DNA of 64,000 nt, taken from positions 1 through 64,000 of the IMG/VR virus record IMGVR_UViG_3300025133_000022; one strand, 5' to 3'. The notes under the pieces were generated by a model that worked only from the letters and a program-made list of their open reading frames with translations, did no database searches and was not told where the DNA came from. A program made the translations under genes and the position numbers. This DNA comes from a virus. Shown piece by piece: positions 21,435-61,216 of this stretch. The stretch's first letter is position 1, and each line of letters begins with the position of its first letter.

Positions 21435-21821
21435 ATGGAACTAACCCCACAAGAACTAACTCTCTTTGCAGCCAGCGCTAGTGCAGCTGGCTACTTTCTC
21501 AAAAGCTATTTGCTCTACAGAAAGAATAAAGCCATACCTCCTAATGGGCTTCAAGGAGAAATCTATCCACAAGAACACTACCTGTTTGAAAACAGATATG
21601 TCACTATCCAAGATGTCCATCAAGACTATCTTGACATACACCTTTATGAAAAAACTCCTAGATATGACCAGCATACCATTGAAGTTTATCAAAACTCTTT
21701 CAGAAAATCAGCAATACGAGTAACTGCAGACCAAATAGCACAAGAAGTAAATATGCAAGCAATACTTGCTGCTAAACATACCAATGACATGCTAGCTGCA
21801 TATGCTGAGCTAGATAACTAG
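21435..21821 (+). CDS. Hypothetical protein with N-terminal TM
   Basis: GGAG RBS; hydrophobic N-terminus. Confidence 0.65.
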   Translation: MELTPQELTLFAASASAAGYFLKSYLLYRKNKAIPPNGLQGEIYPQEHYLFENRYVTIQDVHQDYLDIHLYEKTPRYDQHTIEVYQNSFRKSAIRVTADQIAQEVNMQAILAAKHTNDMLAAYAELDN

Positions 21822-21843
21822 GGAGGCAAAGCCTCCCTTGTGG
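21821..21843 (+). promoter_or_regulatory. Class II hairpin element (triloop, 8 nt, TGTGG)
   Basis: GGGAGGC-AAA-GCCTCCCT TGTGG. Confidence 0.45.
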
Positions 21844-21856
21844 AACAGGAGATATT

Positions 21857-22444
21857 ATGACCACAATAGCAATCATTGGTAGTGCCGGCAGAAAAGACGA
21901 CGCGCAACACATGAGTCCAGAACTCTACAGACGTATGTACGCTGCAACTCGACTGCGTATGTACCAGTGGAAACCCACTCGACTTATTAGCGGTGGGGCA
22001 GCGTGGGCTGACCATCTAGCCGTTCAGCTATACCTACAAAGACACGCACAAGCACTCAAACTCGTGCTGCCTGCCTACTTCAAAGACTGCAAGTACCTAA
22101 GTACAGGATATCGTAGTCCAGGAGGAATCAGCAATTATTACCACAAACTCATGAGCGACGTGGTCGGGTACAACACCCTCTCTGACATCCAAGCTGCCAT
22201 TGACCAAGGTGCAGAAATTGAAGTCATTCCTGGATTTAAAGCCAGAAACACACCAGTAGCACATGATGCAGACTATATGCTGGCCATGACCTTTGGCACC
22301 AGCAGTGGCTACTACACACAAGGTACACCTGGGTATGTACAGCCTGCAACAGCTGGGTTGAAACTCGGAGGCACAGCCGATACGTGGTTCAAATGCAGAA
22401 ATGCCCGCGCAAAATATCACAAGAACCTACACGAGCTATTGTAA
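21857..22444 (+). CDS. SLOG-superfamily (DprA/YAcAr-like Rossmann) protein
   Basis: IAIIGSAGR, LISGGAAWADHLA, FKARNT.VA..AD..LA, GGTADT. Confidence 0.7.
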   Translation: MTTIAIIGSAGRKDDAQHMSPELYRRMYAATRLRMYQWKPTRLISGGAAWADHLAVQLYLQRHAQALKLVLPAYFKDCKYLSTGYRSPGGISNYYHKLMSDVVGYNTLSDIQAAIDQGAEIEVIPGFKARNTPVAHDADYMLAMTFGTSSGYYTQGTPGYVQPATAGLKLGGTADTWFKCRNARAKYHKNLHELL

Positions 22445-22507
22445 CTAAGGCCCCCGTAAGGGGCCTTCTTCTATGAGTACTTACACTCATTCGCCACGGA
22501 ACCACCA

Positions 22508-22702
22508 ATGCCAAACCCCGTACCTACTTGGATCTCCAGAGATCCATATCCACCACAAATCCTTAAAAGCCGAGCTGGCTACTACATTGGCACCAAGACC
22601 CCCGAAGGCATGCCTTACGCCCGATGGACCAGCTACACCTCTAAAGAACAGTGCCGAGCATGGATCGATAGCGGCAACATCCCATACAGGTTGCACCCTT
22701 GA
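22508..22702 (+). CDS. Phage hypothetical protein
   Basis: ILKSRAGYYIG...PYAR motif. Confidence 0.6.
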   Translation: MPNPVPTWISRDPYPPQILKSRAGYYIGTKTPEGMPYARWTSYTSKEQCRAWIDSGNIPYRLHP

Positions 22703-23017
22703 ACGTCCAACAAATGGTATGCCTCGCCATGGACAATAACTGGCCTGCTGAAAGTCCAGAAGCATGGGAAGCAGCATGGACAGTAGGTGGCATTCAACAC
22801 ACCATACAAGCCCTGGGTGATGCACCATCAAGTACGAATATGTCATCCAACATGAAGATGACAAGTTCGCCCTGACTCTTAAAGGCAGTGAATACTGGCT
22901 AGCAAACTTCTCTGAAGGCTTCAACGACAGAAACACCAAGTAGCAATCAAACTAACCCAGCCCCCATCAGGGGGCTTACTTATTGAGTATTTCCACTCTA
23001 TTCTCACAAGAGTCACC

Positions 23018-23689
23018 ATGAAACTTCAAGTCAATGACAGCATCGTTACTCTACCCACCAGCTGTGCTTGCGGTGGTAATACTGCCTATTTTCTTAAGCG
23101 CGCCAATGGTACTAAAATCAGCATCGGCTGCACTTGCTGCACTGCCATCAGCATCAACATTAAGCAGCAGTCAACACATCGCGCCTATGGCAAAATCCTC
23201 ATTGCAGGTACATGGCATTGCAGCCCCACATACAAGGGGAATGTCTACCATTGTGGACAAATGATCGCAACATGGTTTAGTACCAAAGGTCAAGAAGTAG
23301 ACAGCCCCTGGGCTGTCTACTACAAGCCTATCATCGGTGGCTCCTACAAACTGCTATGTGAACAACACAATGGAGCTGCACTCCTACACAAGCACAGTTT
23401 CGAACAAATCTCTAGTGAAATACAAGACCTGCTAAACAAACTCTCTGACCTAGAGTACATCAAAAGCCAATGCCAGAAGTTGAATCAACATGGTATGGCC
23501 ATATGGGCAACACTTCCAAAACTCGATCCACCTTTCCAGCTGGTTCGAGACGCTGCCACTATGGGGCTTCTTAACGTAAAAGGCGGCAAGATGTTTCTCA
23601 CGGAAACAGGCCTTGCTTATGCTGACACCAGCACTGAAGGCTTCAACAGCAGAAAAGCATGGCACGGCTGGACGTGCAACAAATACTGA
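23018..23689 (+). CDS. Hypothetical protein
   Basis: 223 aa after a class I hairpin. Confidence 0.7.
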   Translation: MKLQVNDSIVTLPTSCACGGNTAYFLKRANGTKISIGCTCCTAISINIKQQSTHRAYGKILIAGTWHCSPTYKGNVYHCGQMIATWFSTKGQEVDSPWAVYYKPIIGGSYKLLCEQHNGAALLHKHSFEQISSEIQDLLNKLSDLEYIKSQCQKLNQHGMAIWATLPKLDPPFQLVRDAATMGLLNVKGGKMFLTETGLAYADTSTEGFNSRKAWHGWTCNKY

Positions 23690-24075
23690 TGAGCAACAGA
23701 AGAAGAACAGAACGCATTCAAGCTCGCGATGGTTCACGATGTTGCTGGTGTGGGTACCTGCTTTGCAATCGCACAGAATATACTCCTGACCAGCAACATC
23801 GCATTGCTACCCTTGAACACGTAATACCACTTAGCAAGGGTGGCAAAAACAGTGATGGCAACTATCGCGTTGCATGTCATGACTGCAACACCGTTCGTCA
23901 AACAGGATGGAAACCTGATGAAATAGTATACTATAAAAAGTGTCCACTAATTCATTTCTTAAAACGTATAAAACACCCTGTACGTAAAAAGTTTTGGTTG
24001 CCAACACGAAGCCGACCAAAAACACCTATCCTGCACCTGGTTAACACATGGCAACATACTCTCTCTACCTCCTAG
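23689..24075 (+). CDS. HNH endonuclease
   Basis: RDG.RCCWCG, TLEHVIPLSKGG.N...N..VAC..CN. Confidence 0.85.
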   Translation: MSNRRRTERIQARDGSRCCWCGYLLCNRTEYTPDQQHRIATLEHVIPLSKGGKNSDGNYRVACHDCNTVRQTGWKPDEIVYYKKCPLIHFLKRIKHPVRKKFWLPTRSRPKTPILHLVNTWQHTLSTS

Positions 24076-24287
24076 AAGCCGATGAAATAAAGCTTATTAA
24101 GAGCTCTGTGGATCCAGTGGAAATACGTAGAATTTCCAGAAGCAAAAAACTGCAAAAACGCGCTTCACGCCAAGGGAACAAACTTTGGTGTGAGCGTGAC
24201 AATCGGGTTCTCAGACTCGACCGCCTTGATAAAATCTGCTATCAACTCTGGCTTCAGCACCCAACACACCATACGCCCTGGACCTAA
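24048..24287 (+). CDS. Hypothetical protein
   Basis: Co-oriented. Confidence 0.55.
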   Translation: MATYSLYLLEADEIKLIKSSVDPVEIRRISRSKKLQKRASRQGNKLWCERDNRVLRLDRLDKICYQLWLQHPTHHTPWT

Positions 24288-24289
24288 TC

Positions 24290-24547
24290 ATGACAAATGT
24301 CCGTTTCGGCATCATCTCAGTAGCCTTGATAGCACTCCTGGCTGCTGCCAGTATCGATGGCTATAGCTTTAAGCTTATCAATGACAATTTAGAAGAAATC
24401 AAAGGACACATCATGCTTCATGATAGTGAAGCCTGCGTCATTCAAAGCGAAACGCTTGCTAACGAAGAGCTGGCTATCCAGCTTGTCCGTGCATGTGTCA
24501 AAACCCACCAAGAGCGCACCAATGCCAAAATATCAGAGCTACGCTGA
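24290..24547 (+). CDS. Protein with N-terminal signal/TM helix
   Basis: FGIISVALIALLAAASI. Confidence 0.6.
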   Translation: MTNVRFGIISVALIALLAAASIDGYSFKLINDNLEEIKGHIMLHDSEACVIQSETLANEELAIQLVRACVKTHQERTNAKISELR

Positions 24548-24731
24548 GCGAAATCGACATGGCTGCTGCGCAGTTACACGCTGCGAAAATCCACTTGACC
24601 CAGAAAATACTTGGATCAACAGCCTTAATGGCAATGAATATTGTGAATCATGCAAAAACTGGTTCTACAACAATCACGATCGCCATGCAAAAGGCCTTGT
24701 TAGAGCCTGGAGTAAGAAGCAAACCAATTGA
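24522..24731 (+). CDS. Cys-rich hypothetical protein
   Basis: CCAVTRC...YCESC. Confidence 0.5.
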   Translation: MPKYQSYAERNRHGCCAVTRCENPLDPENTWINSLNGNEYCESCKNWFYNNHDRHAKGLVRAWSKKQTN

Positions 24732-24855
24732 AGCTAGAGCGGGCGTAGCCCGCTTTTTATTGTGAGTATTTGTGGTGGTCCATACATGCTTTTAGAGAAG
24801 CCCTATCCCAGGGGCTTCTCTTTGAGGACTTTGCGCCTCCCAACAAAGGACCACC

Positions 24856-25287
24856 ATGATACCACTCACAACAAAACTCCTAGGAAAGAATTTTACAACT
24901 GCAACCCTAGGAAAAGTTTTAGGATCGCACATTCATGTCAGCGACATAGGGGCAATTCAAGAAGACGGTAGAAGAACCGCTGATCAAGCAGCATATACCG
25001 ACTCTACGGAAACTATGGCTATGCATGTCAGCCAAACAAGAAGAGACATTGCACTGCGCTCACATATGTACGAACGCGCTGCTCTTAGGGCAGTAGATGC
25101 CAGCCTGGCCGAACCAATTAGACGCAGTGCAGCACAACGAGCAAAACAAATAAAGCAAAAACAAAAAAGAGAGCTTGAAGAAGCTCTCGGCTCCCTGGTT
25201 ACAGAAGCTAGATGTAAAATAGCAAGAAGAGACATTCCATGGATCTTAGCTTACAGCCAAATGCTAAAAGGCGATGAAGGTGCCTAA
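24856..25287 (+). CDS. Hypothetical protein
   Basis: AAGGA RBS. Confidence 0.65.
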   Translation: MIPLTTKLLGKNFTTATLGKVLGSHIHVSDIGAIQEDGRRTADQAAYTDSTETMAMHVSQTRRDIALRSHMYERAALRAVDASLAEPIRRSAAQRAKQIKQKQKRELEEALGSLVTEARCKIARRDIPWILAYSQMLKGDEGA

Positions 25288-25371
25288 AGTGCGTAAGTTT
25301 CTCCGTCAATTTCTAGAGAATTTGAACAGATTGCAACACATGAACTTGCCATAAAGTTCCAAGGAGACATC

Positions 25372-25608
25372 TTGTATGCACTAAGATTAAAAAGCGTCAC
25401 CAAGCCAGGTGCTTGGGCCTATATTAGCTTATGGACAGGAACCAGACTGTATCGTTCCGCCTACAGCAAACTAGAACTTGCGACCCTTGAAGAAGCAACT
25501 TCCCTGATCCAAGAGATTAAAGACGCTTGGGAGTCAGGTCGAATCACTTCCTCAAGACTTACAAGTGAACGAATTAACTCAATTGAAATCTACAAGCTCC
25601 CATATTAA
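25372..25608 (+). CDS. Hypothetical protein
   Basis: AAGGAG RBS, TTG start. Confidence 0.55.
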   Translation: MYALRLKSVTKPGAWAYISLWTGTRLYRSAYSKLELATLEEATSLIQEIKDAWESGRITSSRLTSERINSIEIYKLPY

Positions 25609-25797
25609 AAGGAGCTAAGGGTGATCTGTAGTTTAGAGACCTTTAAAGTTAGTAGCGTTTCGGCAACCTACTCATGGAGATAACCTTCCAGCAAGTCTCA
25701 CTTGGGGAATCATGGATAAAACACAGGAAAAACTATCTGGATTTGGGGTTCAAATCCCCTTCAGATCACCCACTCTTAACAAACAATCAGGACGACT

Positions 25798-26082
25798 ATG
25801 GTAACCATTGCTACCACAATTGGAATCTTACTTTTTATCTTTGGATTGGCGGTACTATTCCTTACAGCCCGCCTGCCCAGTAGCAATACTGGAAGTGGAG
25901 TCGGAGCTATGGCGATGCTAGCCACAATAACTCTCTACTTCATTAGTGCTGGCATTATGGTCGCCAGCACCATACCGTTTGGCATAGCACTATATGCAGC
26001 CGGATACACCTTTCCTGCTATCCTTATAGGAGGTTTCGGATTTCTAACGATCGCTGCAAGTTTGTACTTTTGGTTTAGATAG
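25798..26082 (+). CDS. Three-TM membrane protein
   Basis: Hydrophobic segments. Confidence 0.65.
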   Translation: MVTIATTIGILLFIFGLAVLFLTARLPSSNTGSGVGAMAMLATITLYFISAGIMVASTIPFGIALYAAGYTFPAILIGGFGFLTIAASLYFWFR

Positions 26083-26202
26083 TGCACAGTCCAGATCACC
26101 CTCTGCATTCAGTATATTGCTTTTTCCAAATACTTTGCGTAGTGATGATCTTAGCAAGTGTTTTTACTCAATGCTAAATCACCCTAACCAACAGGAAAAA
26201 GA

Positions 26203-26646
26203 ATGAATCTCAAAGCATTCGCACCATACACCCTGGATCCAAGGACCTGGGGGTCCTGGGTCCCATCAAATCTCTTGCAAAAACATGCTTATGGTAACGA
26301 AAATCCAATTGCCATTGGACACGCTCCTGGAACTGGTTGGTTTATACTAACTAAAGATCCAGAAGAACGAATGCTCTTTTGCGAACACGAAATAGAGCCA
26401 ACAATCAACAACCCAGCTGAAATCAACTGGGGAGTCTGTGGTTTCCCAAGCCTGGAAGGCTCATGTTTAAATGCAATGGCATTGATAACCATTCTGAAAT
26501 TCACTCCTGCAGCAATGAAACAAGTGCTTGGCATGAGTGTCGGAAAAATCAGAAACATTAAAATTCACAATCGAGTGTTTTCATTAAGTAGGATCCACTC
26601 TGATATTTATCGAATTATCAATATCTTAAAAACACCAAAAATCTAA
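26203..26646 (+). CDS. Hypothetical protein, C-terminus weakly RNAP alpha-CTD/HhH-like
   Basis: SCLNAMALITI..LKFT..MKQVLGMSVGKIRNIK. Confidence 0.5.
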   Translation: MNLKAFAPYTLDPRTWGSWVPSNLLQKHAYGNENPIAIGHAPGTGWFILTKDPEERMLFCEHEIEPTINNPAEINWGVCGFPSLEGSCLNAMALITILKFTPAAMKQVLGMSVGKIRNIKIHNRVFSLSRIHSDIYRIINILKTPKI

Positions 26647-26658
26647 TCGGCTCAAATA

Positions 26659-26800
26659 AGTCCCGGCAAAAGTACACAGCAGGGCCTAAATAGACGACTA
26701 GGGGAGATGAGTTTTCTATCTCCAGTAACAAACAGTAGTTCAAGGTCTGAACTGCTCTTGAATAAGAGAACAAAGACCTAATTCGACAAATGCCGGGATT
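26659..26800 (+). ncRNA. Unassigned structured RNA with pseudoknot
   Basis: Closing stem AGTCCCGGCA/TGCCGGGATT, three internal hairpins, loop AGGTC complementary to downstream GACCT. Confidence 0.5.
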
Positions 26801-26859
26801 GAAAGATTCCTAAGACCCTCCGAAAGGAGGGTCTTAAATTGAGAGAACACACCATCTTA

Positions 26860-26887
26860 GCAGCGCGTAGCGCTGCTTGTGGGGTGA
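26860..26887 (+). promoter_or_regulatory. Class II hairpin element
   Basis: GCAGCGC-GTA-GCGCTGCT TGTGGGGTGA. Confidence 0.5.
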
Positions 26888-27070
26888 CAAGGTGTAGCCG
26901 TAGGCGAGAATCACCGAGTCCGTTCAACCAAACAAGACCGACGGTTAAAATGGCCGGTGGACCCGTCTTACCCTCCTTGTAGAGGTACATTTATACAACA
27001 TGCATTTAAAAGCAACTTCCGTACGAAATTGGTACCAGTTTCGACCAGTTGCGCTAATGCAAACGTATAC

Positions 27071-27112
27071 TCATGGGTGGCGCGCAGCGCCACCTGTGGG
27101 GCGAGAGTAGGT
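27071..27112 (+). repeat. 42-nt exact repeat (copy 1) containing a class II hairpin element
   Basis: TCATGGGTGGCGCGCAGCGCCACCTGTGGGGCGAGAGTAGGT, identical to 61175-61216. Confidence 0.9.
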
Positions 27113-28155
27113 GGTTACCTACTCAAGCTTGACTTCATGTCCAAAGGTACTGCAACTCCTAGAGTCCAGAAGCCTGACCACATGAGCAAAGTACATTGAT
27201 CTGAAACTTAGACACTGTTCTCCAAAAAGGAGTCTAGGACGAGGCTCTACAGATCATACCCAAGCCAGGTGTCTGGTCCTTCGGGACAGGGCCCTGGGGC
27301 GGCTTAGCGTCCATTAGGATAATCTGCGGTAACGCAGGAAAGGGAGAACAGACAAACTCCCGCCAATTAGTGCTTGCACTAAGGTCCAGCTAAGCAATCT
27401 CAGACTTCAGGTTAAAACCTGGACTATCACTTCAGTGGTGGGATAGTCGGTAAGTTGTAGGATGGAGAGATAAGCGATGTCTAACCCGGAGCAGTAGCAA
27501 TACTATTCGTAAGGAAGCACGTGAAGAGGTCCTGGGAAGGATTACCTCCATCCAAATCCATGCAACGAACGAGGAAAGTCAAGAGAAGTTGCGTTCATAA
27601 GGAGCAAAGCCAGCTCCCAAATAGTCCAATTGGGTAGAACCATAGGGCACGCAGCAGTACGGAGGATGAAAGGTCACAAACCTGGAATCCAATGACACCG
27701 GTAAAGGCGGCTACGCCGAATGCCACGAGAGAGTGTGGGACTTTGCAAACCAAAAGTTTGCGAACCTACTCGTCAAAGCACTCTCTCAGTCTGGGCTCAC
27801 GCTCGGAGTAAATCGAGCACTCCAAATTAAACAACGGAATCAAAACGCAAAAGTCTTTGACGACTATGAAGTGAAAGCAGCCTAAGACCAAGCCTCAAGA
27901 GGTCCTTGGTGTATGGAGTCCCGCAAGGACAAAATACTTGGTAGCTAGAAAGCATATGTGGACCCGCAATTCCACAAATGCAAGAAAGCGCCGATCAGCT
28001 CATAGTAAGGGAGACTGGAACCCTCAAAAGACCAGTGGCTGTGGCATGTACCTGTGGCAACACAGGTGGACACGTTCTTAGCTATTAGGCCTCGCAGCCT
28101 AATCGGTACGGGAATTAAAGAATGACCACAAGAAGACTTAATCTCAGTCTTCTCT
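27095..28155 (+). ncRNA. Large structured ncRNA, GOLLD-like
   Basis: About 1 kb with no credible long ORF and dense hairpins. Segments GCAATCTCAG, GGTTAAAACCTGGACTATC, GTCTAACCC, GAGTCCCGCAAGG, GNRA hairpin+GGACACG and a terminal TAATCTCA-loop hairpin resemble GOLLD motifs as recalled (not searched). Confidence 0.55.
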
Positions 28156-28558
28156 TCCTTCTCTTTTGTAATCTTGATTTGCAAAAGAGAAATCAGATTA
28201 TGAGGGTGGGTAAAACCACCCTCTAATTTTCTATATCAGGACAAACCATGTTTATTTCAGCCTGCCTTGCCATCTTGGTATATGCTGCTCTAAATAAAGT
28301 TTGCGACTGGCTAGAAAGAACAGGTTGCTTGTTCGCAATCTTGCTTATTTTCGCACTATCAATGTTAGCTTTTAAATGCATTGTAGCTGTTGAGCAAGAA
28401 TTCTGGAGCATTCTAAACCTCTGAGCGATGCATCGCTCATGTCGCTACGGTACACCACTGAACCGTACAGGCTTGGTAACGTCAGAAGAGCTCGAGCAAT
28501 CTTCTTGAAGTCAGCCCGACGAACTACTCACCCTCCAACGCCACCCCTGGAGATCCTC

Positions 28559-28966
28559 ATGGACATTTTCTCAGCAGGCTTTGCGCTAGCTTTCAGTGTC
28601 GTAATCAGTCTGATTGCAACCGTTCACAAACTGCCACCCTGGATGAAGGCGTGGCTTATCCGCCACCGACTCATCACAGACGTCATTGTATTCCTCGGAA
28701 TCACTGCCTTCTTGACCTTCATCAGCAAGAGTGTCATCAGTCTCATTGGTAGCACGCTTGCTACCCTGGCTGTCAGCCTTGGTCTCGAAGGTCTCGTCTG
28801 GTGGGAAAAGAGGCGACTCGAAAACGGCTTGGCTCCAATGTTTGGAAAAGCAAATCCAATTGTTGATCCCGAATCAAACTTAAAGAAAGATTCCAAACTC
28901 AGAAAACCAGCAACAATAATAAAGGCCATTTGGTATGCTTTTACAAAGCCATTGCCAAATCCTTGA
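28559..28966 (+). CDS. Membrane protein
   Basis: GGAG RBS; three TM segments. Confidence 0.7.
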   Translation: MDIFSAGFALAFSVVISLIATVHKLPPWMKAWLIRHRLITDVIVFLGITAFLTFISKSVISLIGSTLATLAVSLGLEGLVWWEKRRLENGLAPMFGKANPIVDPESNLKKDSKLRKPATIIKAIWYAFTKPLPNP

Positions 28967-29028
28967 TGCCAGAGCCCGCTAAAAGCGGGCTTTTAAATTG
29001 AGTATTCACACCGCAACACGAGTAATTC

Positions 29029-33515: not shown

Positions 33516-33529
33516 ATTCTGCAAAACTA

Positions 33530-33558
33530 GGCGTGCGTAGCACGCCTTCTTAGTTGAG
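33530..33558 (+). promoter_or_regulatory. Class I hairpin element
   Basis: GGCGTGC-GTA-GCACGCC TTCTTAGT TGAG. Confidence 0.55.
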
Positions 33559-52941: not shown

Positions 52942-53760
52942 ATGAGCAGAACAATCTTCATCGGAGACGTACATGGATGTTTAAAAGAACTTCAAGAACT
53001 TATTTGTAAGATACACTTACATCAAAACGACCATCTTGTTTTCGTTGGAGATCTGATTCATAAAGGACCCGACAGTACAGGAGTTCTTGAATATGTTCTC
53101 AACTTAACGAAAACATATAAAGTTGATATCATTTGTGGAAATCATGAAGAAAAACATCTTCGCTGGCTAAAAACAGAAGCATCTTGTCTTAAAACAAACA
53201 CTAAGAACACAATGCTACACGTAGAAGAATACCCATCGGTCAACGTCTCAAGCGAAGTCAAAGAACTTCTAGAAAACACCTACATTGCAAAAAAATACAA
53301 TAACACTGTAGCTGTACATGCTGGCATCCCTAGCAATTTGCTAGAACTCAAATGCATAACACATGCCGAGTGGTCTGCAACTAGCGGCAAACAGAAACGC
53401 GCTCTTGCTCAAGTTATGAGAGTTCGATTCCTTGCTGGACCCAACAGAACTAGCACAAATAGCAAAGGCAAAACAAAGAAAGTACAAATGGGCAAAATGA
53501 TTGCCCTTGGTCAAGAAAAACCAGAAGACAACTACTGGGCTAACGTTTATGATGGACGCTTCGGAACAGTAGTTTTTGGACACAACCCATTTATGGAAAA
53601 CAAGCCAAGAATCTTTCCCTATGCCTTTGGGGTTGACCTAGGATGCGTGCACGGAGGCTACCTCTGTGCACTAATCAAGAAAAATAAAACCACTACACAC
53701 GTTGTAGTCAAAGCAAAACAAACCTATCAAAAAAGTCCATCTTGGATTTACAAAAACTAA
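52942..53760 (+). CDS. PPP-family metallophosphoesterase (PrpE/ApaH/Pnkp phosphatase-like)
   Basis: GDVHG, GDLIHKGP, GNHE, HAG, FGH, DLGC.HGG.L. Confidence 0.9.
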   Translation: MSRTIFIGDVHGCLKELQELICKIHLHQNDHLVFVGDLIHKGPDSTGVLEYVLNLTKTYKVDIICGNHEEKHLRWLKTEASCLKTNTKNTMLHVEEYPSVNVSSEVKELLENTYIAKKYNNTVAVHAGIPSNLLELKCITHAEWSATSGKQKRALAQVMRVRFLAGPNRTSTNSKGKTKKVQMGKMIALGQEKPEDNYWANVYDGRFGTVVFGHNPFMENKPRIFPYAFGVDLGCVHGGYLCALIKKNKTTTHVVVKAKQTYQKSPSWIYKN

Positions 53761-53770
53761 AGGAACCAAA

Positions 53771-54127
53771 ATGTTATTTTGTCATGCACTCGTTGCTTAC
53801 ATGTATAAAAATGACCCCACTGAACGCACAACCCGATGTACATTTGCGGTCCGGCAAGACGAAAACCAAACATACTCATATGCAACCGCGTGGGCCTCTC
53901 CGTCAGACAACTTCGCTAAGAGGATTGGCCGACAGATCGCCCACGCTCGCCTAATCAACAACTCCCCCGTTCATGTCAATAAAGTAACTACTGGCGCTGA
54001 AAATTATCGTGACATCCTGAAAACAGTCATGGCCGACGCTATGGACAAAGGGCCATCTCGATGGACTGTCACAGATATCACATTCTTCAAAACTACCAGT
54101 GATGCAATTCTCGCACAGACTCAATAA
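53771..54127 (+). CDS. Hypothetical protein
   Basis: A.ASP.DNF.KRIGR.IA..R motif. Confidence 0.65.
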   Translation: MLFCHALVAYMYKNDPTERTTRCTFAVRQDENQTYSYATAWASPSDNFAKRIGRQIAHARLINNSPVHVNKVTTGAENYRDILKTVMADAMDKGPSRWTVTDITFFKTTSDAILAQTQ

Positions 54128-54188
54128 ATCAAATTCTAGAGACACACAAGCCGCCTTTAAGGCGGCTTCTTATTTGAAGGAGTGACTT

Positions 54189-54638
54189 ATGCCAACAGAA
54201 CACCATCAAGGCGACTTGCTTGCCAGCAACTGCACAGTCATAGCACATGGTTGCAATTGCTTTAACACAATGGGAGGAGGAATAGCACGTGTTATCAAAG
54301 CACGCTATCCCAAAGCCTACCAAGCCGATTGCGAAACCACAAGAGGTGACGCGAACAAGCTTGGCACCTACACTATGTGTTCGTACCCTGATCGCAGAAT
54401 CTTCAACCTGTATACACAATACAGGTTTGGAACAAACAAAATGCATCTTGATTATGAAGCACTTGTTAAGGCTCTCTTGCAATTGCGTTCGGCCTTAGAT
54501 AAACACGACCCCCACCATAATGAAATCGTAGGCTTCCCACGCATTGGTTGCGGATTAGCCGGTGGGAATTGGAAATACGTTGAAGAGCTTATCGAAACAG
54601 TATTCCCTAACAGAACGATACACATCTACACACTTTAG
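54189..54638 (+). CDS. Macrodomain (ADP-ribose binding/hydrolase)
   Basis: GDL, HGCNCFNTMGGGIA, NLYTQ, FPRIGCGLAGG.W. Confidence 0.9.
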   Translation: MPTEHHQGDLLASNCTVIAHGCNCFNTMGGGIARVIKARYPKAYQADCETTRGDANKLGTYTMCSYPDRRIFNLYTQYRFGTNKMHLDYEALVKALLQLRSALDKHDPHHNEIVGFPRIGCGLAGGNWKYVEELIETVFPNRTIHIYTL

Positions 54639-54645
54639 CGGACAC

Positions 54646-54861
54646 ATGGACAACGAAAAACCAAGACGCTCAAAAAAAGCCCAAAACCGCCGACGCGGTG
54701 GATCTAACCCAATCGCAATAGCTCATGGTAAACGCGGTGGGGCAGGAGGAGGTGCGCACCGCAACAAAGCAAAAAGCGCACAACGCAGTGAGCGTCACCA
54801 GAAACACAAAAGGTCTTGGTACGATGAATACCAAGACCTTGAAGATTACTCAGAAGAATAA
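54646..54861 (+). CDS. Small basic hypothetical protein
   Basis: R/K/G-rich, acidic tail. Confidence 0.55.
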   Translation: MDNEKPRRSKKAQNRRRGGSNPIAIAHGKRGGAGGGAHRNKAKSAQRSERHQKHKRSWYDEYQDLEDYSEE

Positions 54862-54864
54862 ATC

Positions 54865-55302
54865 TTATGCAAACGTCACAGCAATATAACCTGGGAAACC
54901 AGGAACATTGAGTGGACGAACCATAAGGTGAAATGTATCAGTTGATGTTTGTAAATCTTCTATATCAATAACTGCAACTCCAGAAGAGTTAGTAGTTACA
55001 ATTAAACGTGGCTGAGCAGTTGTACTAACCTCAACACCAGTGGTTGCTGCTAAGTGAGCGTTAGTCACTAAAGCATCAACACCAGTATCTGTTAAAAGAA
55101 CACATTCAAGAGTAATAGCTTCGTCAGCAGTTACATAATCATTAAGAGCCTCTTGAAAAGTAGTCATAGTGATTGTAACAGCAATCTTTTCAGATGCTTC
55201 TGAAGCAGCAACAAGCTGCGGAATATATCTACGCTGACGCAGAAAACGTTCTTGAACCCATCCATTGGCTGCACTTGCTGCAACAATCGAAGAACTAGGC
55301 AT
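54865..55302 (-). CDS. Beta-rich protein, possible virion decoration protein
   Basis: GGAGG RBS; T/A/V-rich; late-strand orientation. Confidence 0.6.
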   Translation of the reverse strand: MPSSSIVAASAANGWVQERFLRQRRYIPQLVAASEASEKIAVTITMTTFQEALNDYVTADEAITLECVLLTDTGVDALVTNAHLAATTGVEVSTTAQPRLIVTTNSSGVAVIDIEDLQTSTDTFHLMVRPLNVPGFPGYIAVTFA

Positions 55303-55440
55303 ATTGACCTCCTATAGCTTACTAAGCTATCTAGTCTCTCATCAACCAATAGATGGACACCCATATGTGTCGGACTAGCCAACACCAGCATATCTAAACA
55401 ACAACAACACGTCAAGTGCAATCACAAAGGAAATGAAAAC

Positions 55441-57024
55441 ATGCCAAACCCAAACTTATTCCACACCAAAACATCCCAGCCACTAGCCACCAGCCACAAC
55501 AACGCAGGTGGTCGTGCTTACAAAACTTCCGATATGCATGCGCTTGCACAGCTAGCATGCACTGGTGTATTTAACAACACCTACTACACCAAAGCTGAAA
55601 ACCAACTCAAGCAAGCTCGCGCGCTCTGCAAAAAGGTAAGCCCAGCAACAGTTGCACGTATCGCTGTATACTCACGTCAACAAGGCATGATGAAAGACAT
55701 GCCTGTGCTCTTGCTTACCTACTTGTTTTCCATCGAAGACAAGAAATACTTCAATGCCGCATTCCCGTATGTCGTAAACAACATCGGACAGCTACGCAGC
55801 TTTGTGCAAATGGTTCGTAGTGGTGTTTGTGGTCGTCGCTCTCTTGGCTCTGCAGGCAAGCGCGCAATCGCAAACATGCTCAACACCATGACTCCTCGTC
55901 GAATCTTCTGGCAAGCCACTGGCAAAGGTATGAGTTTTGCAGATGTTCTCAAGCTTGCTCATGTAAGACCACAAAGTGCAGCACACGACAGCTTCTTTGC
56001 CTACATGTTAGGTAAAAGTGTTTCTGAAGACTTTGAGAAACTACCAGAAAACATCCAGCACTTCGAATTGTTCAAACGCAAAGAGTACAGCGAAGTACCA
56101 GATGTACCATTTCAACGCCTGACCAATCTAGATCTTAGTGTAATCCAGTGGGGTGAAGTCACGCGCAAAATGACTTGGAACCAGCTTCGTTTCAACCTAA
56201 ACAACCTCACTCGCAAAGGTGTGTTCAAGGACACTCAGCTGGTTCTCGAAGTAGCAACCAAACTTCGCAATCCCAAAGCAGTGCTTGGCAGCAAGGTTTT
56301 GCCATTCAGTCTATACAACACTGTCAAACATCTAGATGACAGTGTTCCACAAGCTCTAAAGAACGCTATGGTCGATGCACTGGAAATCAGCGGACAAAAC
56401 GCCCCTGTGCTTCAAGGCAACACCCTCGTTCTCGTCGACTCTAGTGGCTCTATGAACTCGCCAACAACTGGCTACCGTGCTGGCGCAACCACCACCATGC
56501 GTTGCGTCGAAGCAGCTGGATACTTTGCAGTCAGCATACTCAAAGCCAACCCAGACAGCACCACCATCCTGCCATTTGACGGCCGAGTTCATCCAGTGAA
56601 CTTAAATCCACGTGATAGCATGGCAACCTTAATCAAAAAACTCCCAACTGCAGGCGGAAGCACCAATATTGCTTGCGGTATTGAATGGGCACTACACACA
56701 AGTACAAAATTCAACCAAATCATCATTGTTTCTGACAATGAGAGCTGGGTGAACTCTGATCAATACATGTGGTACAGTCACAAAATCACTGCAACCAAGC
56801 AAGCTTTTGAAAGATACCGTCGTCACAAGAGCCCTGGCTGTAAAATGATTTGTATCAATATTCAGCCAAGCACTACAACAACGCAGGCACCCGATGACAA
56901 AAATACACTAAACGTAGGAGGACTCAGCGACGCAGTCTTCCGTGTTGCTAGCCAATTCCTCACCAGTCGTGGTAACGCGCACTGGGAAGATGTACTTAAC
57001 AAGATTCTTCCGAATCTCAAATAA
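55441..57024 (+). CDS. rsr: TROVE-vWA RNA-binding protein (Ro60/Rsr homolog)
   Basis: N.AGG.AY, LAQLA.TG.FNNTYY, R..G.MKDMP, GRRSLGS..KR, LAH.RP, vWA DSSGSM, GGSTN, SDNE.W. Confidence 0.9.
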   Translation: MPNPNLFHTKTSQPLATSHNNAGGRAYKTSDMHALAQLACTGVFNNTYYTKAENQLKQARALCKKVSPATVARIAVYSRQQGMMKDMPVLLLTYLFSIEDKKYFNAAFPYVVNNIGQLRSFVQMVRSGVCGRRSLGSAGKRAIANMLNTMTPRRIFWQATGKGMSFADVLKLAHVRPQSAAHDSFFAYMLGKSVSEDFEKLPENIQHFELFKRKEYSEVPDVPFQRLTNLDLSVIQWGEVTRKMTWNQLRFNLNNLTRKGVFKDTQLVLEVATKLRNPKAVLGSKVLPFSLYNTVKHLDDSVPQALKNAMVDALEISGQNAPVLQGNTLVLVDSSGSMNSPTTGYRAGATTTMRCVEAAGYFAVSILKANPDSTTILPFDGRVHPVNLNPRDSMATLIKKLPTAGGSTNIACGIEWALHTSTKFNQIIIVSDNESWVNSDQYMWYSHKITATKQAFERYRRHKSPGCKMICINIQPSTTTTQAPDDKNTLNVGGLSDAVFRVASQFLTSRGNAHWEDVLNKILPNLK

Positions 57025-57070
57025 CAAAGAGCCCACTCGTTGAGTGGGCTCTAATATTCAAACCACAAAA

Positions 57071-57637
57071 ATGAAAGTATACTTATTTTTATCAAATTCA
57101 CTGAAAGACGCACTTGCTGCACACGGAATTAGTCAAGAAGATTATCGCCCGGCATATGGCGGGGAAAGCGTTGGTTTAGACCTATATAATGCAGGAGACA
57201 GAATTATAATTCCACCTGTTGAAAAGCTACGCTACTTTGCACAACTAGAACTCAATCAGGAAATGGCAAAACCTGATACTTGGTCTGATATGCCAGAAAG
57301 CGCACGAAAAGCAATTTTCAAACGACTTGTTCCTACTGGGATAAGATCAGTAATTCCTACAGGTTATGCCGGTATCATCATGGAGCGTAGTTCTATAGTA
57401 AAGACACCCCTGAAGGTGCGAGCCGGAGTTATAGATCCTGGATATACTGGAGAAATCTTTATCAATATGATAAATGTTTCAAGTATACCGTTTGTACTTG
57501 AGCCAGGAGAAAAAACTCCATTTCAGCTTATTGTGCAAAAAGTAACAACCAATTACAACGTCGTAAGCGCACAAGAGTATTCAGAACTCATAAGCAAAAA
57601 CACTCGACAAGAAAAACGTATTGGTAGCTCCGACTAA
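57071..57637 (+). CDS. dut: Trimeric dUTPase
   Basis: GLDL, ERSS, GVIDPGYTGE, FQL, RIGSS. Confidence 0.85.
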   Translation: MKVYLFLSNSLKDALAAHGISQEDYRPAYGGESVGLDLYNAGDRIIIPPVEKLRYFAQLELNQEMAKPDTWSDMPESARKAIFKRLVPTGIRSVIPTGYAGIIMERSSIVKTPLKVRAGVIDPGYTGEIFINMINVSSIPFVLEPGEKTPFQLIVQKVTTNYNVVSAQEYSELISKNTRQEKRIGSSD

Positions 57638-57644
57638 GGATAAT

Positions 57645-57966
57645 ATGAAAACTAGAAGTACAAGAGCATTTCGATTAAGCGAAAAATTTATCGAACCATA
57701 TAAAAACAAAAACGTACCATGGGGACCAATAGGATACGTCACGTATAAGCGTACATATCCACGTCGTCTTGACGACAACAACCCAAATGCAGGTACAGAA
57801 GAATGGCATCAAACATGCAGACGAGTGATCGAAGGCATGTTCACCATGCAAAAACGCCACTGCGTTCAAGCAGGTCTTCCTTGGAGCAATGCGAAAGCTC
57901 AACGCACAGCACAAATCGCATATGACAGATTGTTCAATCTAAAGTGGACACCTCCAGGTCGTGGGT
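57645..57966 (+). CDS. nrdJ: Class II (B12) ribonucleotide reductase, exon 1
   Basis: GYVTYKRTY, EEW.QTCRRVIEG, WTPPGRG; joins exon 2 to give PPGRGLWMMGT. Confidence 0.9.
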
Positions 57967-58989
57967 TAACTCCATAGCCCACGCTAAAGAATGTAAATTG
58001 CTGGAAACTCCTTAGAGCCTCGGACACCACACGACTGCAAGTCGAAAGGTTTGACAAGAACGAGGATTGGACAATCAGCAGCCAAGGGAATTTAATGATC
58101 AACAACCAACTACTAAGGGAAATAGAAGAAGGAGTGATTTCTAGCAGACGCCAGCTCTACAAACGAGTAGGTAGAAGTAAGAAATTATTACAGTGGCTTA
58201 ATGACAACAACATCTTAGTCCCACAAAAATGGGATGCTGGTAGAGTTAAAGCTGAACTTCTACAACTTAAGAACAAGTTGGGCAGGCTACCAAAAGCTTG
58301 TGATAATGAAGCTCTAACGGCAAGAGCACAGAAATATTATGGCACATGGAATAATGCCCTAAGAGAAATCTTTGGAGTAGTGAATCAACGATGGCACAAT
58401 CACCTGTCAAACGATCAGCTCATTGAGCTGGTTAAACAACATGTAATCACTAACCAAAGACTACCACTTAGAGAAGAGTTTGATGGCAAATCACCGGCCT
58501 ATCCATATTTTGAAGTCTATCTAAATAGATTTAACATCAAAATATGGTCAGAAATCTACACTATAGTAGATCTCACAGGAATCAAATACTTTCCACACAA
58601 GAAACATGGCACAGGATACATTTACATGCATCAAGGCGTTGTTTACTTGTCGAAGCAAGAATACCTAATAGGCAAATATTTAGTAAAAAATAACATCAAA
58701 TTTAAGAAAGAAGTACCATATGGTAATTGTAAATATATCTTTGACTTCTATCTTCCAGAACTAGACTTGTACATTGAGTACTACGGGCTAGCAACTGAAG
58801 AATATAAAAAGAAAATAGAAAACAAAAGACTACATTATGGTGTAAGAAGCGTGCTTGAGATTTTCAAGCACGAGAACACGATCAAGAAATTAAATTCCAA
58901 GGTTCAGAGACTATAATCATTCCTCGTTGGTTTAATCACGAGAAGGTATAGTCCAGCGCATGGTGAAAGCTATGCGAAAGTCCCATCTG
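57967..58989 (+). mobile_element. Group I intron in nrdJ
   Basis: P1 GTGGGT/GCCCAC with U-G at the splice site; AAATTGCTGGAAA, CAATCAGCAG, GTTCAGAGACTA, GGTATAGTCC core motifs; terminal G at 58989; splicing restores GGG-TTA-TGG. Confidence 0.92.
58095..58916 (+). CDS. Intron-encoded homing endonuclease (N-terminal repeats plus PD-(D/E)XK/Vsr-like domain)
   Basis: LGRLP...YYGTWNNAL repeats; KEVPY...FDFYLP..IEYYG. Confidence 0.8.
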   Translation: MINNQLLREIEEGVISSRRQLYKRVGRSKKLLQWLNDNNILVPQKWDAGRVKAELLQLKNKLGRLPKACDNEALTARAQKYYGTWNNALREIFGVVNQRWHNHLSNDQLIELVKQHVITNQRLPLREEFDGKSPAYPYFEVYLNRFNIKIWSEIYTIVDLTGIKYFPHKKHGTGYIYMHQGVVYLSKQEYLIGKYLVKNNIKFKKEVPYGNCKYIFDFYLPELDLYIEYYGLATEEYKKKIENKRLHYGVRSVLEIFKHENTIKKLNSKVQRL

Positions 58990-60911
58990 TATGGATGATG
59001 GGCACAGACTTCGTTCAAGAACGCACCGCAGCTGGTTTGTTTAACTGCGCGTTCAGGTCTACTAAGGACCTGGCTGCCAAAGGCGGCTATCTCTTCCAGT
59101 GGATGATGGATGCCCTCATGGTGGGTATTGGAGTAGGTTTCGACACCCTCGGTGTCGGCACCCTCAAAATCAAAGCTCCTGGTAGCAAGTTCCCTACCCC
59201 AGAGCAAGTTCCTGAGATGGAAAACACCTACCATCGCATCAATGGTGAGTGGACTTGTATCATTGCTGACAGCAGGGAAGGTTGGGTTGAAAGTGTGCGC
59301 GTTCTCCTGAACGCATTCTACTTTGGCTACGAGCTACCCAACTTCTGCTACGATAGTATTCGTCCAGCAGGTAGCCTCATCAAAGGCTTTGGCGGTGTTG
59401 CCAGTGGCTCTGGGCCCCTGGCTGACCTACATCAGTCACTCATTGCTATGTACTCTGAAGCCGTTGGTAAGTTGATTACTACCGAGAACATTGTAGATAC
59501 TCAGAACCTTATTGGTAGGTGTGTGGTTGCCGGCAACGTCAGGCGCTCCGCAGCTCTAGCAATGGGACAAGCAGGTGACAAGCACTTCCTGGTACTCAAG
59601 GACCCAACCCAGGTCCACGAGTGGGAAGCTGAGCTAGCTGTATCTCTTGAGCAATACCCTCCTCCCGTACCACTCGACACATCAGTTCTTGCTGGTGCAT
59701 TGGGAGCCGAGTACGCAGAGCAGACAGCTGAAGAAGCAACAAAGATCGCGCAGCTCCTGGCAGAATTCCAAGTAGCTTGGGATCGTCAAGCTGAACTCAA
59801 GGAACTCATCACTAACCACCCTCTACGTCATCACCGTTGGGGTAGTAACAACAGCGTTGATGTCAGTGGCGTCACAGACTTTACAGAATACGCTGAGCTC
59901 ACCGTAAAGAACGGAGAGCCTGGATATATCTTCTTGGAGAACGCACGCAGACACGGGCGTCTCAAGGACCCTGAGAGAGATGACGACCTACTCGTCATGG
60001 GATTCAACCCCTGCGTAGAACAGCAACTAGAAGATGCAGAGCTTTGCTGCCTGGTGGAAACCTATCCATGGTTGCACGAGAGCTACGAAGACTACCTCAT
60101 CACCCTCAAGATCGCTTACCTATACGCTAAAACAGTTACACTGGCTAAAACCCAGTGGCCTGAGACTAACGCTATCATGCTTAAGAATCGACGTATCGGA
60201 CTAAGTATGAGTGGGTTTGTCCAAGCTGCTTACCAGCGTAGCTTCACAGAGATGTATGAGTGGTGCGACAATGCCTACGACTATGTTCAAAAGCTAGACG
60301 GCACTTACAGTGACTGGTTGTGTGTTCCGCGTAGCAAGCGGACCACCTCTATTAAACCTTCCGGTACTGTTAGCAAGCTAAATGGTAGTTGGCCCGGCAT
60401 TCATCACCCTGAATCAGAACATTACATTCAACGAATCAGGTTCTCTGAAGACAACGACATGCTACCTGCTCTCATTGCCAATGGCTATCATGTAGAGGAC
60501 TGTGTTTACAGTCCTGGCACCAAGGTGGTTAGCTTCCCTGTTAAAGAAGAACACTTTGTTCGCGGCAAAAAGGAAGTAAGCATGTGGGAGCAGTTAGAAA
60601 TCGCTGCCCAAATGCAATACTACTGGGCAGACAACAGCGTCAGCGTAACGGTAACCTTTCAAGATCACGAAGCAGCAAGCATTCCTCATGCATTACAGCT
60701 ATACAGCAAGCGTCTAAAAGCAGTAAGTTTCCTCAAATACAAAGAAACAGGCTATGTGCAAGCTCCTTATGAGCCTATAAGTGAAGACACTTATAAACAG
60801 ATGATAGCCAAAGTGACTCCACTTCAACGCGTTAACGCATCCACTCAGGGCGTTGGTGAGCGTTTTTGCACTACGGATAGCTGTGAAATCGACTTTAGCA
60901 AACCTAACTAA
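58990..60911 (+). CDS. nrdJ: Class II ribonucleotide reductase (monomeric RTPR type), exon 2
   Basis: FNCAF, GVGFD, SGVASG, VAGNVRRSA, SNNSV, NPCVEQ, RRIGLS, TSIKPSGT, DNSVSVT, C-terminal C...C. Confidence 0.95.
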
Positions 60912-60920
60912 GGAAAAACA

Positions 60921-61130
60921 ATGACAAGATTTAAAATCGGAGACACAGCAACAAGAACTATTGAGAACTCAGTCGGACATCCAATTGATGTACCTGTCGG
61001 AATTTACATACAAGACAATACTCTTGACACTCACCCAATCCTAGTCATGATGGATCCAATGACTATAACTGACGTACGCAAGTACACAGAAGAACTAGTC
61101 AAAACACTTAACGCAGCTGTACATAAGTGA
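60921..61130 (+). CDS. Hypothetical protein
   Basis: AAGGA RBS. Confidence 0.6.
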   Translation: MTRFKIGDTATRTIENSVGHPIDVPVGIYIQDNTLDTHPILVMMDPMTITDVRKYTEELVKTLNAAVHK

Positions 61131-61156
61131 GGCGTAGCCTCACTTGTGGGGCGAGA
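61129..61156 (+). promoter_or_regulatory. Class II hairpin element
   Basis: GAGGC-GTA-GCCTCACT TGTGGGGCGAGA. Confidence 0.5.
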
Positions 61157-61174
61157 ACAGGTCCTCTTTCACTT

Positions 61175-61216
61175 TCATGGGTGGCGCGCAGCGCCACCTG
61201 TGGGGCGAGAGTAGGT
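61175..61216 (+). repeat. 42-nt exact repeat (copy 2) containing a class II hairpin element
   Basis: Identical to 27071-27112. Confidence 0.9.

Follow-up and report, generated by a model that had tools for sequence, protein, structure and literature searches.

The window analysed here is a stretch of 64,000 nt (positions 1 to 64,000 of the IMG/VR record IMGVR_UViG_3300025133_000022) from a phage whose 192-kb genome carries its own unusual RNA polymerase gene. About 30 gene boundaries of this phage are marked by a strand-specific signal consisting of a hairpin and a short box, and the approximately 30 copies form a single family, all on the + strand, between 15.2 and 83.5 kb of the genome. The copies and neighbouring features are collected in Table 1.

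The polymerase gene is present in a single copy, and its stop codon abuts the first member of the family. The AF2 model of the product (pLDDT 84) contains two double-psi beta-barrels in one chain, and a Foldseek search with this model matched QDE-1 (E 7e-12) as well as the phage RNA polymerases P32 gp64, P74 gp62, P23-45 gp96, and phi14:2 gp66 (8f72, 8f5m, 8h2m, 6vr4). The sequence QGDDDGDEV, which contains the DxDGD metal-binding loop, is invariant in 17 polymerase homologues. On its predicted structure, the 1090-aa protein is a single-chain two-barrel RNA polymerase of the QDE-1, YonO, crAss gp66, and P23-45 gp64 group. It is the only polymerase found in the genome; a search for T7-like polymerases with PF00940 gave no match, and the control genomes gave none either. 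A 1707-aa protein in the tape-measure slot was also considered as a polymerase and rejected: its first 747 residues, the only part compared, had an hhalign probability of 0.4% against the polymerase profile.

Table 1. Hairpin-plus-box elements and associated features (window coordinates unless marked as genome)
Feature	Position	Strand	Description
Single-chain two-barrel RNA polymerase gene	11957-15229	+	1090 aa; candidate reader of the elements
Class II copy A	21820-21849	+	AGGGAGGC-AAA-GCCTCCCT then TGTGGAA CAGG
Class II copy B	26859-26888	+	AGCAGCGC-GTA-GCGCTGCT then TGTGGGG TGAC; 217 nt upstream of copy C
Class II copy C	27076-27105	+	GGTGGCGC-GCA-GCGCCACC then TGTGGGG CGAG; 5' edge of GOLLD region; YG at 27102/27103
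Class II copy D	61126-61155	+	AGTGAGGC-GTA-GCCTCACT then TGTGGGG CGAG; tandem with copy E
Class II copy E	61180-61209	+	Identical to copy C (GGTGGCGC-GCA-GCGCCACC, TGTGGGG CGAG); YG at 61206/61207
Class II copy F (sixth)	genome 67267-67296	+	AGGCGTGC-GTA-GCACGCCT then TGTGGAT TGAG; from whole-genome scan
42-nt exact repeat	27071-27112 and 61175-61216	+	100% identity over 42 nt, 34 kb apart
Intermediate member	15228-15257	+	TATTGGG CGAG; first family member, starts at polymerase stop codon
Intermediate member	17219-17248	+	TGTGTAT AGAG
Class I member	33529-33558	+	Copy F hairpin with T-rich spacer, TCTTAGT TGAG
Typical class I member	28973-29002	+	TTTAAAT TGAG
Further class I members (starts)	15790, 16098, 20151, 20488, 24737, 29335, 32585, 34503, 36169, 46009, 51329, 54149	+	
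Tetraloop variants (loops)	21388, 22966, 26822		
GOLLD conserved 3' domain	27726-28150	+	RF02032, 156.2 bits (gathering score 150), model positions 1-416
ORF-poor structured region	61210-61863	+	AU-rich RNA to GC hairpin near 61614-61650, then tRNA-like module

A first-pass annotation of the window had listed five hairpins followed by TGTGG, and all five are present as described. The whole-genome scan, which it had proposed as a check, added a sixth (copy F), and TGTGG directly follows the 8-nt 3' arm in six of six copies. The stems had been given as 5-8 bp; they are in fact 8 bp, or 12 bp with a wobble extension. The continuation GGYGA in four copies and the 42-nt identity were both borne out, and this repeat spans the hairpin, the spacer, the box, and 7 nt past the box (10 nt from the conserved G). 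Multiplying the frequency of TGTGG by the probability of an 8-bp stem gives an estimate of approximately 0.003 class II copies expected by chance, and the whole-genome scan found no - strand class II copies in the same register. The conserved G lies at 26886 in copy B, 27103 in C, 61153 in D, 61207 in E, and genome position 67294 in F. Tandem pairs are frequent (B and C, D and E). Copy A lies between a stop codon (21821) and the ribosome-binding site and ATG of an ORF at 21857-22444; its DNA fold has an energy of -9.5 kcal/mol (z = -4.1), and its box, CAGG, makes it the weakest member. A small, unverified ORF on the + strand (60921-61130) follows the RNR gene (58995-60911), and the extended stem of copy D runs over the stop codon of this ORF.

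The layout of the family is a GC stem of 7-8 bp, an NNA triloop, a 7-nt spacer of the form T-N-T-K-N3, and a Y-G-A-G box. The conserved YG step always lies 16-17 nt 3' of the loop, with the box G at 17 nt. An offset of exactly 16 nt between triloop and TGAG is seen 12 times on the + strand, compared with approximately 0-1 times for any other offset; the - strand has a single case at 16 nt, the palindromic complement of copy F (genome 67267). An alignment of 59 members from 7 phage genomes or contigs shows an invariant A as the third loop base and at least 90% conservation for each of G2, C18, T20, T22, and G28; only about half of the members have G as the first loop base. All 8 stem pairs vary on both sides and the stems covary. 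No G.T pair occurs in the 7-bp core of true family members, and because the members counted were chosen for a perfect core, a percentage of stem pairing would be circular.

Two forms of the spacer were distinguished, a T-rich form (class I) and a G-rich form (class II), and the register, the loop rule, and the box are common to both. Approximately 24 further class I copies have an 8-3-8 hairpin with A as the third loop base, T at +9 and +11, and Y-G at +16/+17. The hairpin of copy F is present twice, with a G-rich spacer at 67267 and a T-rich spacer at 33529, and class II tracts such as TGTGGGGC contain 2 T in 8. The second, independent class claimed in the first-pass annotation does not exist as such: class II is the G-rich-spacer subclass of one phage-specific family and not a separate element.

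The early promoters P1-P3 of phage N4, which are read by the virion RNA polymerase gp50 (PMC4496689), resemble this element in several respects. Both have a small, GC-rich DNA hairpin whose 3-nt loop is closed by a 5'-C...G-3' pair, a stem whose sequence is free if paired (7-8 bp here, 5-7 bp in N4) together with few fixed bases, a spacer acting as a ruler to a G start (putative here), and a phage-specific, sigma-independent character. In contrast, the N4 enzyme is a T7-like (single-subunit, right-hand) polymerase, and its promoters have a template-strand G-N-A loop with a sheared G:A pair centred at -11; here the enzyme is two-barrel, the conserved A occupies loop position 3 of the sense strand, the loop reads T-N-N on the template, and it would be centred at approximately -18. 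N4 has 3 copies, compared with about 30 here. The polarity opposite to N4 had already been noted in the first-pass annotation, which expected +1 at or near the first G of TGTGG; this G lies 9 nt past the loop. On paper, the C-G-closed triloop and this G match the N4 geometry (PMC4496689), and five of six copies precede ncRNA regions. However, a separate N4-style promoter class starting there is very unlikely: any of the four bases can occupy position 10 past the loop in the family, the hairpin, register, and box are shared by both classes, the loop polarity is reversed, and the sole polymerase found is two-barrel rather than T7-like. As position 10 is unconserved and a conserved pyrimidine-G lies 7 nt beyond the first G of TGTGG, the YG step makes a better candidate for +1.

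Five of the six class II copies stand at the head of non-coding units, either themselves or through the copy immediately downstream; these units are GOLLD, a structured RNA at 61.2 kb with tRNAs, and a tRNA/Y-RNA-like array. The proposal of the first-pass annotation that these elements drive ncRNAs agrees with this arrangement, for which a promoter appears to be the best-fitting reading; it does not extend to copy A, which precedes a protein gene. Both copies of the 42-nt repeat open ORF-poor structured regions, as had been described. GOLLD is a giant cage-forming RNA of unknown function. The RNA after copy C is a bona fide GOLLD (RF02032), phage-borne and near tRNAs, and another locus, L028, scores 161.1 bits. 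The element lies outside the Rfam model, approximately 620 nt upstream of the modelled domain, and conserved GOLLD 5' sequence resumes approximately 25-30 nt past the box of copy C. The whole unit probably extends from approximately 27103 to the terminator-like hairpin and T-run at 28202-28233. In GOLLD RNAs the 5' region varies and the 3' region is conserved (10.1101/2024.12.08.627333), a pattern also seen here, and we found no GOLLD transcription signal described in that report. For the second region, the fold of 61196-61863 has z = -6.1, a conserved block of it is also present in two related contigs (L031 and L032), and Rfam at permissive thresholds gave no match at 60.9-61.9 kb or 7.3-8.4 kb. 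RNA-handling genes are plentiful in the genome (Ro60, RNA ligase, SNase-domain protein).

Searches of a phage collection by DNA and by protein returned no close phage, and a search of IMG/VR for related loci with the polymerase found none; relatives were collected from the protein database. An exact-pattern scan of IMG/VR with GCGNAGC-N6-TGTGGGGYGAG gave 14 matches, all without stems, which were set aside as chance. The family also occurs, with its register intact, in six related metagenomic phages. Where phages with 43-82% protein identity are compared, orthologous sites differ in their stems but occupy the same place with the same register; these sites lie after the polymerase gene, before GOLLD, and as a tandem after RNR. 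Orthologues of copy B were located at 22609 in L022 and 22672 in L026, those of copy C at 22765 and 22751, respectively, and the D and E tandem is kept in L032 (4576, 4627) and L031 (7264, 7302). The G-rich spacer is retained at the orthologues of B and E and at the post-polymerase site in L022 and L026; the orthologue of the 15228 element reads TGTGGGG CGAG in L022 and TGTGCAG TGAG in L024. In relatives of 52-60% GC the spacers are less T-rich (TCTGCTG, TATGTAC). Because T9, T11, and YG are retained there despite the lost T-richness, sequence-specific reading is indicated rather than a plain U-tract. Furthermore, a pistol ribozyme begins 7 nt past a box in L024, and a tmRNA begins 37 nt past a box in L027.

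In one relative, copies C and E again have almost the same hairpin (1 base differs in the 8-bp stem), and it is unlike the hairpin here, which suggests gene conversion. Together with the 42-nt exact repeat, this is what could be expected of a selfish, MITE-like repeat or a hotspot of recombination, neither with a function in gene expression. We regard such an origin as highly improbable, since most copies have unrelated stems and keep only the structure, the register, and a few bases, their positions are orthologous between diverged phages, and no target-site duplications or terminal repeats surround them.

Signals for other polymerases were also searched for. No Sigma70_r2 domain was found in the genome, sigma70-like sites are depleted genome-wide (10 and 16, compared with 24 +/- 5.5 in shuffles), and no consistent TTGACA and TATAAT hexamers with 16-18 nt spacing lie upstream of the six class II copies. 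A TTGACA-17-TATGTT just after copy F is probably due to chance, given this depletion. We also rejected the possibility of a sigma70 transcript with the hairpin at its 5' end: TATACT precedes copy C, but no -10 precedes copy E or the orthologues. Other recurrent intergenic k-mers were absent, besides tRNA, Shine-Dalgarno, and hairpin motifs.

From the sequence we infer three things: that the signal is a promoter, the strand and state in which it is recognised, and the position of +1. The proposal that the element is a hairpin promoter for the two-barrel polymerase of the phage, with its start at the conserved G and not at TGTGG, has in our judgement a roughly even chance of being right. The 1090-aa polymerase would recognise the hairpin, once extruded or opened, along with the fixed T's, and RNA would start at the conserved G (27103 for GOLLD and 61207 for the 61-kb RNA), with a predicted transcript start of GAG. 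In class I, the T-rich spacer after the GC hairpin may double as the intrinsic terminator of the upstream gene, combining terminator and promoter. Class II, with TGTGGGG instead of a U-tract, would be unable to terminate in the usual way and would head stable-RNA units.

Several observations count against the promoter reading. Class I copies resemble textbook intrinsic terminators, as they have a GC hairpin with an 8-nt U-rich tract, begin 0-21 nt downstream of stop codons, and were flagged in a terminator scan (34 sites found, 13.5 expected). A pyrimidine-G can mark a pause or the end of transcription as well as its start; the Y-G step of the family is found at the distance at which release or pausing is expected mechanistically, and an 8-nt hairpin-to-release distance would also explain the fixed spacing. 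In addition, a distance of 35-54 nt between tandem copies would be unusual for promoters, the box is degraded to YGGN in some orthologues of B and C, and a start at copy A would put the 5' end of the leader inside the Shine-Dalgarno sequence. The family could instead signal termination or pausing to the polymerase of the phage or to the RNAP of its host, class I being intrinsic terminators and class II being hairpin-dependent pause sites or leaky terminators in which a strong rG:dC hybrid blocks release. A conserved terminator motif is reported for the P23-45 vRNAP gp96 (PMC10770324). Nevertheless, we consider this explanation decidedly unlikely. Class II and many copies in the relatives, the GC-richer ones among them, lack the U-tract, yet orthologous sites retain the hairpin along with T9, T11, and YG, and the ordinary terminator-like hairpins of the genome (28202, 127.4 kb, and the late region) are heterogeneous and without a box, unlike the uniform stem length, NNA loop rule, and fixed YGAG box of the family. 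GOLLD, pistol, and tmRNA follow so closely on their boxes that there is no room for another promoter.

The same fixed features could act at the RNA level, with a phage or host endonuclease recognising the RNA hairpin by its NNA loop and cutting the Y|G step 8 nt past the stem; the upstream RNA would retain a protective 3' hairpin, and the cut would set the 5' end of the next mRNA or ncRNA. Strand specificity, an invariant loop base, and single-stranded T's are expected for protein recognition of RNA, the elements occur at every kind of boundary (gene/gene, tRNA/tRNA, and ncRNA/ncRNA), tandem copies would be harmless under processing, and the RNA-handling genes of the phage fit as well. Such punctuation is, on balance, unlikely. 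No candidate nuclease was identified, a 70-kb block would be left without a recognisable promoter, and zero G.U pairs in covarying stems would be unusual for a purely RNA-level helix. Moreover, the first member of the family sits exactly at the end of the polymerase gene, and a different hairpin family is used in the early block, which fits polymerase specificity better than RNA processing.

To our knowledge, hardly anything is known about the promoters of phage RNA polymerases of the single-chain two-barrel type. The YonO promoter was left undefined (PMC5467207), and for Thermus phage P23-45 only sequence motifs are described as promoters, along with a terminator motif, for the two-barrel polymerases gp96 and gp64 (PMC10770324). 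The P23-45 enzymes belong to the same superfamily as the polymerase here, although the structural similarity is remote (E 6e-06, 12-13% identity). As in the present phage, where the roles are putative, small early genes are each flanked by conserved phage-specific start and stop motifs, and the motifs fall into two classes differing in AT/GC content; unlike here, they are given as AT-rich and GC-rich sequences, with no hairpin in the part of the text that was read (PMC10770324). A fuller model, which we offer tentatively and at somewhat less than an even chance, is that the two-barrel polymerase reads a sense-strand NNA-triloop hairpin and a short ruler to a fixed G start, the T-rich spacer making a terminator-promoter between protein genes and the G-rich "discriminator" making dedicated, often tandem stable-RNA promoters.

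If the promoter reading is true, it would provide a hairpin signal for the two-barrel family that is built unlike that of N4, and hence a convergent use of DNA structure as promoter, as well as a compact, orthogonal pair of polymerase and promoter. It would also be the first defined transcription signal for a GOLLD RNA and would tell how and when this RNA is produced: as an independent unit whose 5' end is defined and which has tandem signals of its own for the phage polymerase. Should the elements prove to be sites of processing or termination, they would nonetheless mark the boundaries of the RNAs in the large non-coding repertoire of the phage.

The - strand gene calls inside the block are antisense shadows and of no use for parting promoter from terminator roles. 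The homologues of the ORF at 61864-62466 (L029, L030) are not syntenic and were left out of the comparison. The sequence TGTGGGGTGAG at 8227, considered as a family member, belongs to a different conserved hairpin, GTGGG...CCCAC.

All five class II copies of the first-pass annotation, each a triloop hairpin followed by TGTGG, were present, and a motif scan of the whole genome detected a sixth at 67267-67296 with TGTGG at the same spacing. Each copy has a perfect 8-bp stem with a GTA, GCA or AAA triloop, and the spacing, described as constant, is so: TGTGG lies directly 3' of the 8-nt 3' arm in each copy. The same register on the - strand contained no class II copies in the whole-genome scan. 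The 42-nt repeat (27071-27112 and 61175-61216) is exact, and single-strand folding of the class II hairpins with DNA parameters gave -9.5 to -11.7 kcal/mol (z -3.1 to -5.8). The virus record, whose first 64 kb form the window, has 192,537 bp (complete by CheckV; GC 45.5%). It encodes a contractile tail (tail sheath), rIIA, primase-helicase, class II RNR, Ro60, RNA ligase and at least 23 tRNA genes, and no close relative was found in the phage collection searched.

Features in the window and in later stretches of the same genome (L001, L006)
Feature	Position	Strand	Remark
ATTGA, variable 9-11-bp hairpin, then CTCTTTTATGGCA	7595-11813	+	six copies
Noncoding hairpin-rich stretch, ~700 nt	7600-8300	+	between divergent - and + gene blocks
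Predicted two-barrel RNA polymerase, 1090 aa	11957-15229	+	
Intermediate member	15228	+	TATTGGG CGAG
Intermediate member	17219	+	TGTGTAT AGAG
Class II copies A, B, C, D, E, F	21820, 26859, 27076, 61126, 61180, genome 67267	+	
Noncoding stretch 5' of copy B	26650-26852	+	
GOLLD, Rfam model	27726-28150		156 bits
Hairpin and T-run closing the GOLLD unit	28202-28233		heterogeneous, without box
Ro60 gene	55441-57024		
Additional 273-aa ORF	58095-58916		between dUTPase-like gene and RNR
tRNA-like module	61690-61800	+	
tRNA, anticodon CUA	L001:3188-3260 = genome 67188-67260		amber suppressor; tRNA-Pyl by ARAGORN
1707-aa protein, tape-measure position, part tested	L006:3-2243 = genome 164003-166243	-	

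Class II had been proposed as a separate promoter class, but a listing of all strong triloop hairpins in the genome places it in a larger family of about 30 members between 15,228 and 83,479, all on the + strand. In class I copies, the hairpin is followed by a T-rich run and by TGAG at nt 16-19 after the loop, the register of CGAG, TGAG or TGAC after TGTGGGG. On the + strand, TGAG follows triloops at offset 16 twelve times and at any other offset at most once; its single occurrence at offset 16 on the - strand is the palindromic complement of copy F. Besides this shared register, the classes are joined by intermediates and by an identical hairpin, AGGCGTGC-GTA-GCACGCCT, which is followed by a T-rich spacer at 33529 and by a G-rich one at 67267. 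Most class I copies lie 0-21 nt past a stop codon and 14-37 nt ahead of the next start codon.

Stretches of related metagenomic phages were analyzed around homologues of the polymerase (L022/L027, L024, L026/L028, L033, L034; 42-80% protein identity) and of RNR (L031, L032). The element is present in all of them, on the coding strand and in the same register, with different stems. An ungapped alignment of 59 members (A4) gave the consensus nGGCnnGC-nTA-GCnnGCCT-TnTGnnn-TGAG, with an invariant A as third loop base and conservation of 90% or more at G2, C18, T20, T22 and G28. Each of the eight stem pairs has substitutions on both sides, and the covariation score was 0.825, compared with 0.21 in shuffles and at most 0.22 when the partners were slid. 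The pairing figure of 96.8% is circular, as members were picked for a perfect 7-bp core, but the covariation is not; G.T pairs are absent from the core of true members. The family is interpreted as a polymerase-linked, strand-specific signal, read partly as structure.

The candidate reader is the single-copy 1090-aa polymerase, in which QGDDDGDEV is invariant. Its AlphaFold model (pLDDT 84) matched QDE-1 (E 7e-12), plant RDR2 and the phage proteins P32 gp64, P74 gp62, P23-45 gp96 and phi14:2 gp66 in Foldseek. A genome search found no Sigma70_r2 or other sigma factor domain. Sigma70-like matches (at least 10/12 positions, whole genome) numbered 10 on + and 16 on -, fewer than in shuffles (24 +/- 5.5), and k-mer counting in 130 intergenic regions of the + block returned only tRNA, Shine-Dalgarno and hairpin-family words. 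A virion polymerase in the tape-measure slot was not supported by one test, in which residues 1-747 of the 1707-aa protein gave an hhalign probability of 0.4% against the two-barrel profile.

A promoter is ranked first among the possible functions, at roughly even chances, for four reasons: no rival promoter candidate exists in the block, the family starts at the end of the polymerase gene, the hairpin, T9, T11 (positions after the loop) and the pyrimidine-G step persist at sites that lack the U-tract, and GOLLD, pistol and tmRNA lie too close to an element for a further promoter to fit between. An RNA processing site is unlikely, and a terminator or pause signal slightly more so; P23-45 shows that conserved terminator motifs can accompany two-barrel polymerases of phages (PMC10770324). 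As a promoter, the element would work like the N4 hairpin promoters (PMC4496689), although it departs from them in the strand and loop features that define them, and the N4 polymerase belongs to a different enzyme family. Our literature search found no two-barrel phage polymerase described as using a hairpin promoter. The natural +1 is predicted at the conserved pyrimidine-G step; the first G of TGTGG, suggested earlier, is not a conserved position in the family. In class I, the T-rich spacer may add a terminator function, in which case class II would be promoter-only, serving stable-RNA units.

L022 and L024 retain the site that adjoins the polymerase stop codon, with different stems, loops and spacers (TATTGGG here, TGTGGGG and TGTGCAG, respectively); L026 keeps spacer and box (TCTGGGG AGAC) with the stem unpaired. 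Two copies precede GOLLD in L022/L027 (TGTGTGG TGGC, TGTGCAG CGGA) and in L026/L028 (TCTGGGG TGAC, TGTTCGA CGGG; L028 GOLLD, 161 bits in Rfam). The D and E tandem 3' of RNR is kept in L032 (TGTGTGT TGAG, then TGTGGGG CGAC, 51 nt apart) and L031 (TAGGGAG TGAC, then TCTGGGG CGAG). Since orthologous sites retain it, the G-rich spacer is a conserved trait of specific sites rather than the result of drift. In L022 and L032, taken as the same phage or close relatives, the C and E hairpins differ mutually by one base in the 8-bp stem, and one compensated pair separates them from the hairpin here.

GOLLD lies 3' of copy C, and conservation with L027 resumes ~25-30 nt past the box. The ORF-poor structured region reported after copy E was confirmed (650 nt, fold z = -6.1), with a block conserved in L031 and L032; the tRNA-like module there has a GAGAGTTCGATTCTCTC T-arm within a GTAGTC...GACTAC stem. 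Copy F, 7 nt 3' of the CUA tRNA, heads a tRNA-rich array; there is no sign of TAG recoding, since long late ORFs remain open with table 11. Copy A lies ahead of a protein gene. In relatives, the element stands 7 nt before a pistol ribozyme (L024:21624-21685, 58.5 bits) and 37 nt before a tmRNA (L027:13546-13950; relatives' tmRNAs ~100 bits), and no family element was found upstream of the L028 tmRNA (L028:13122-13543). Neither RNA was found in the window. The stretch 5' of copy B shares conserved sequence with L027 10400-10690 (CCCGGCAAAAGT.CACAGCAGGGCC...), has a tetraloop family member at its end, GACCCTCC-GAAA-GGAGGGTC, then TTAAAT TGAG, and may be a separate small RNA.

In the block 5' of the polymerase gene (7.6-11.8 kb) a different element recurs, with CTTTTATGG at 7595 (one mismatch), 8910, 10093, 10455, 11457 and 11805. 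It is conserved in distant relatives too, a similar CCTTTTATTTCTATGG repeating five or six times in L034, and could represent an early class of promoters or terminators that serves another polymerase. The hairpin-rich stretch at 7600-8300 shares sequence blocks with L022 (7.5-8.1 kb) and with L024 (3.9-4.8 kb) and has no Rfam match at E <= 1. The RNR ORF (58095-60911 region, +) has 638 aa; its counterparts in close relatives have 729-739 aa and an N-terminal RNR_Alpha domain match that is missing here. The gene may have been split or interrupted by an insertion.
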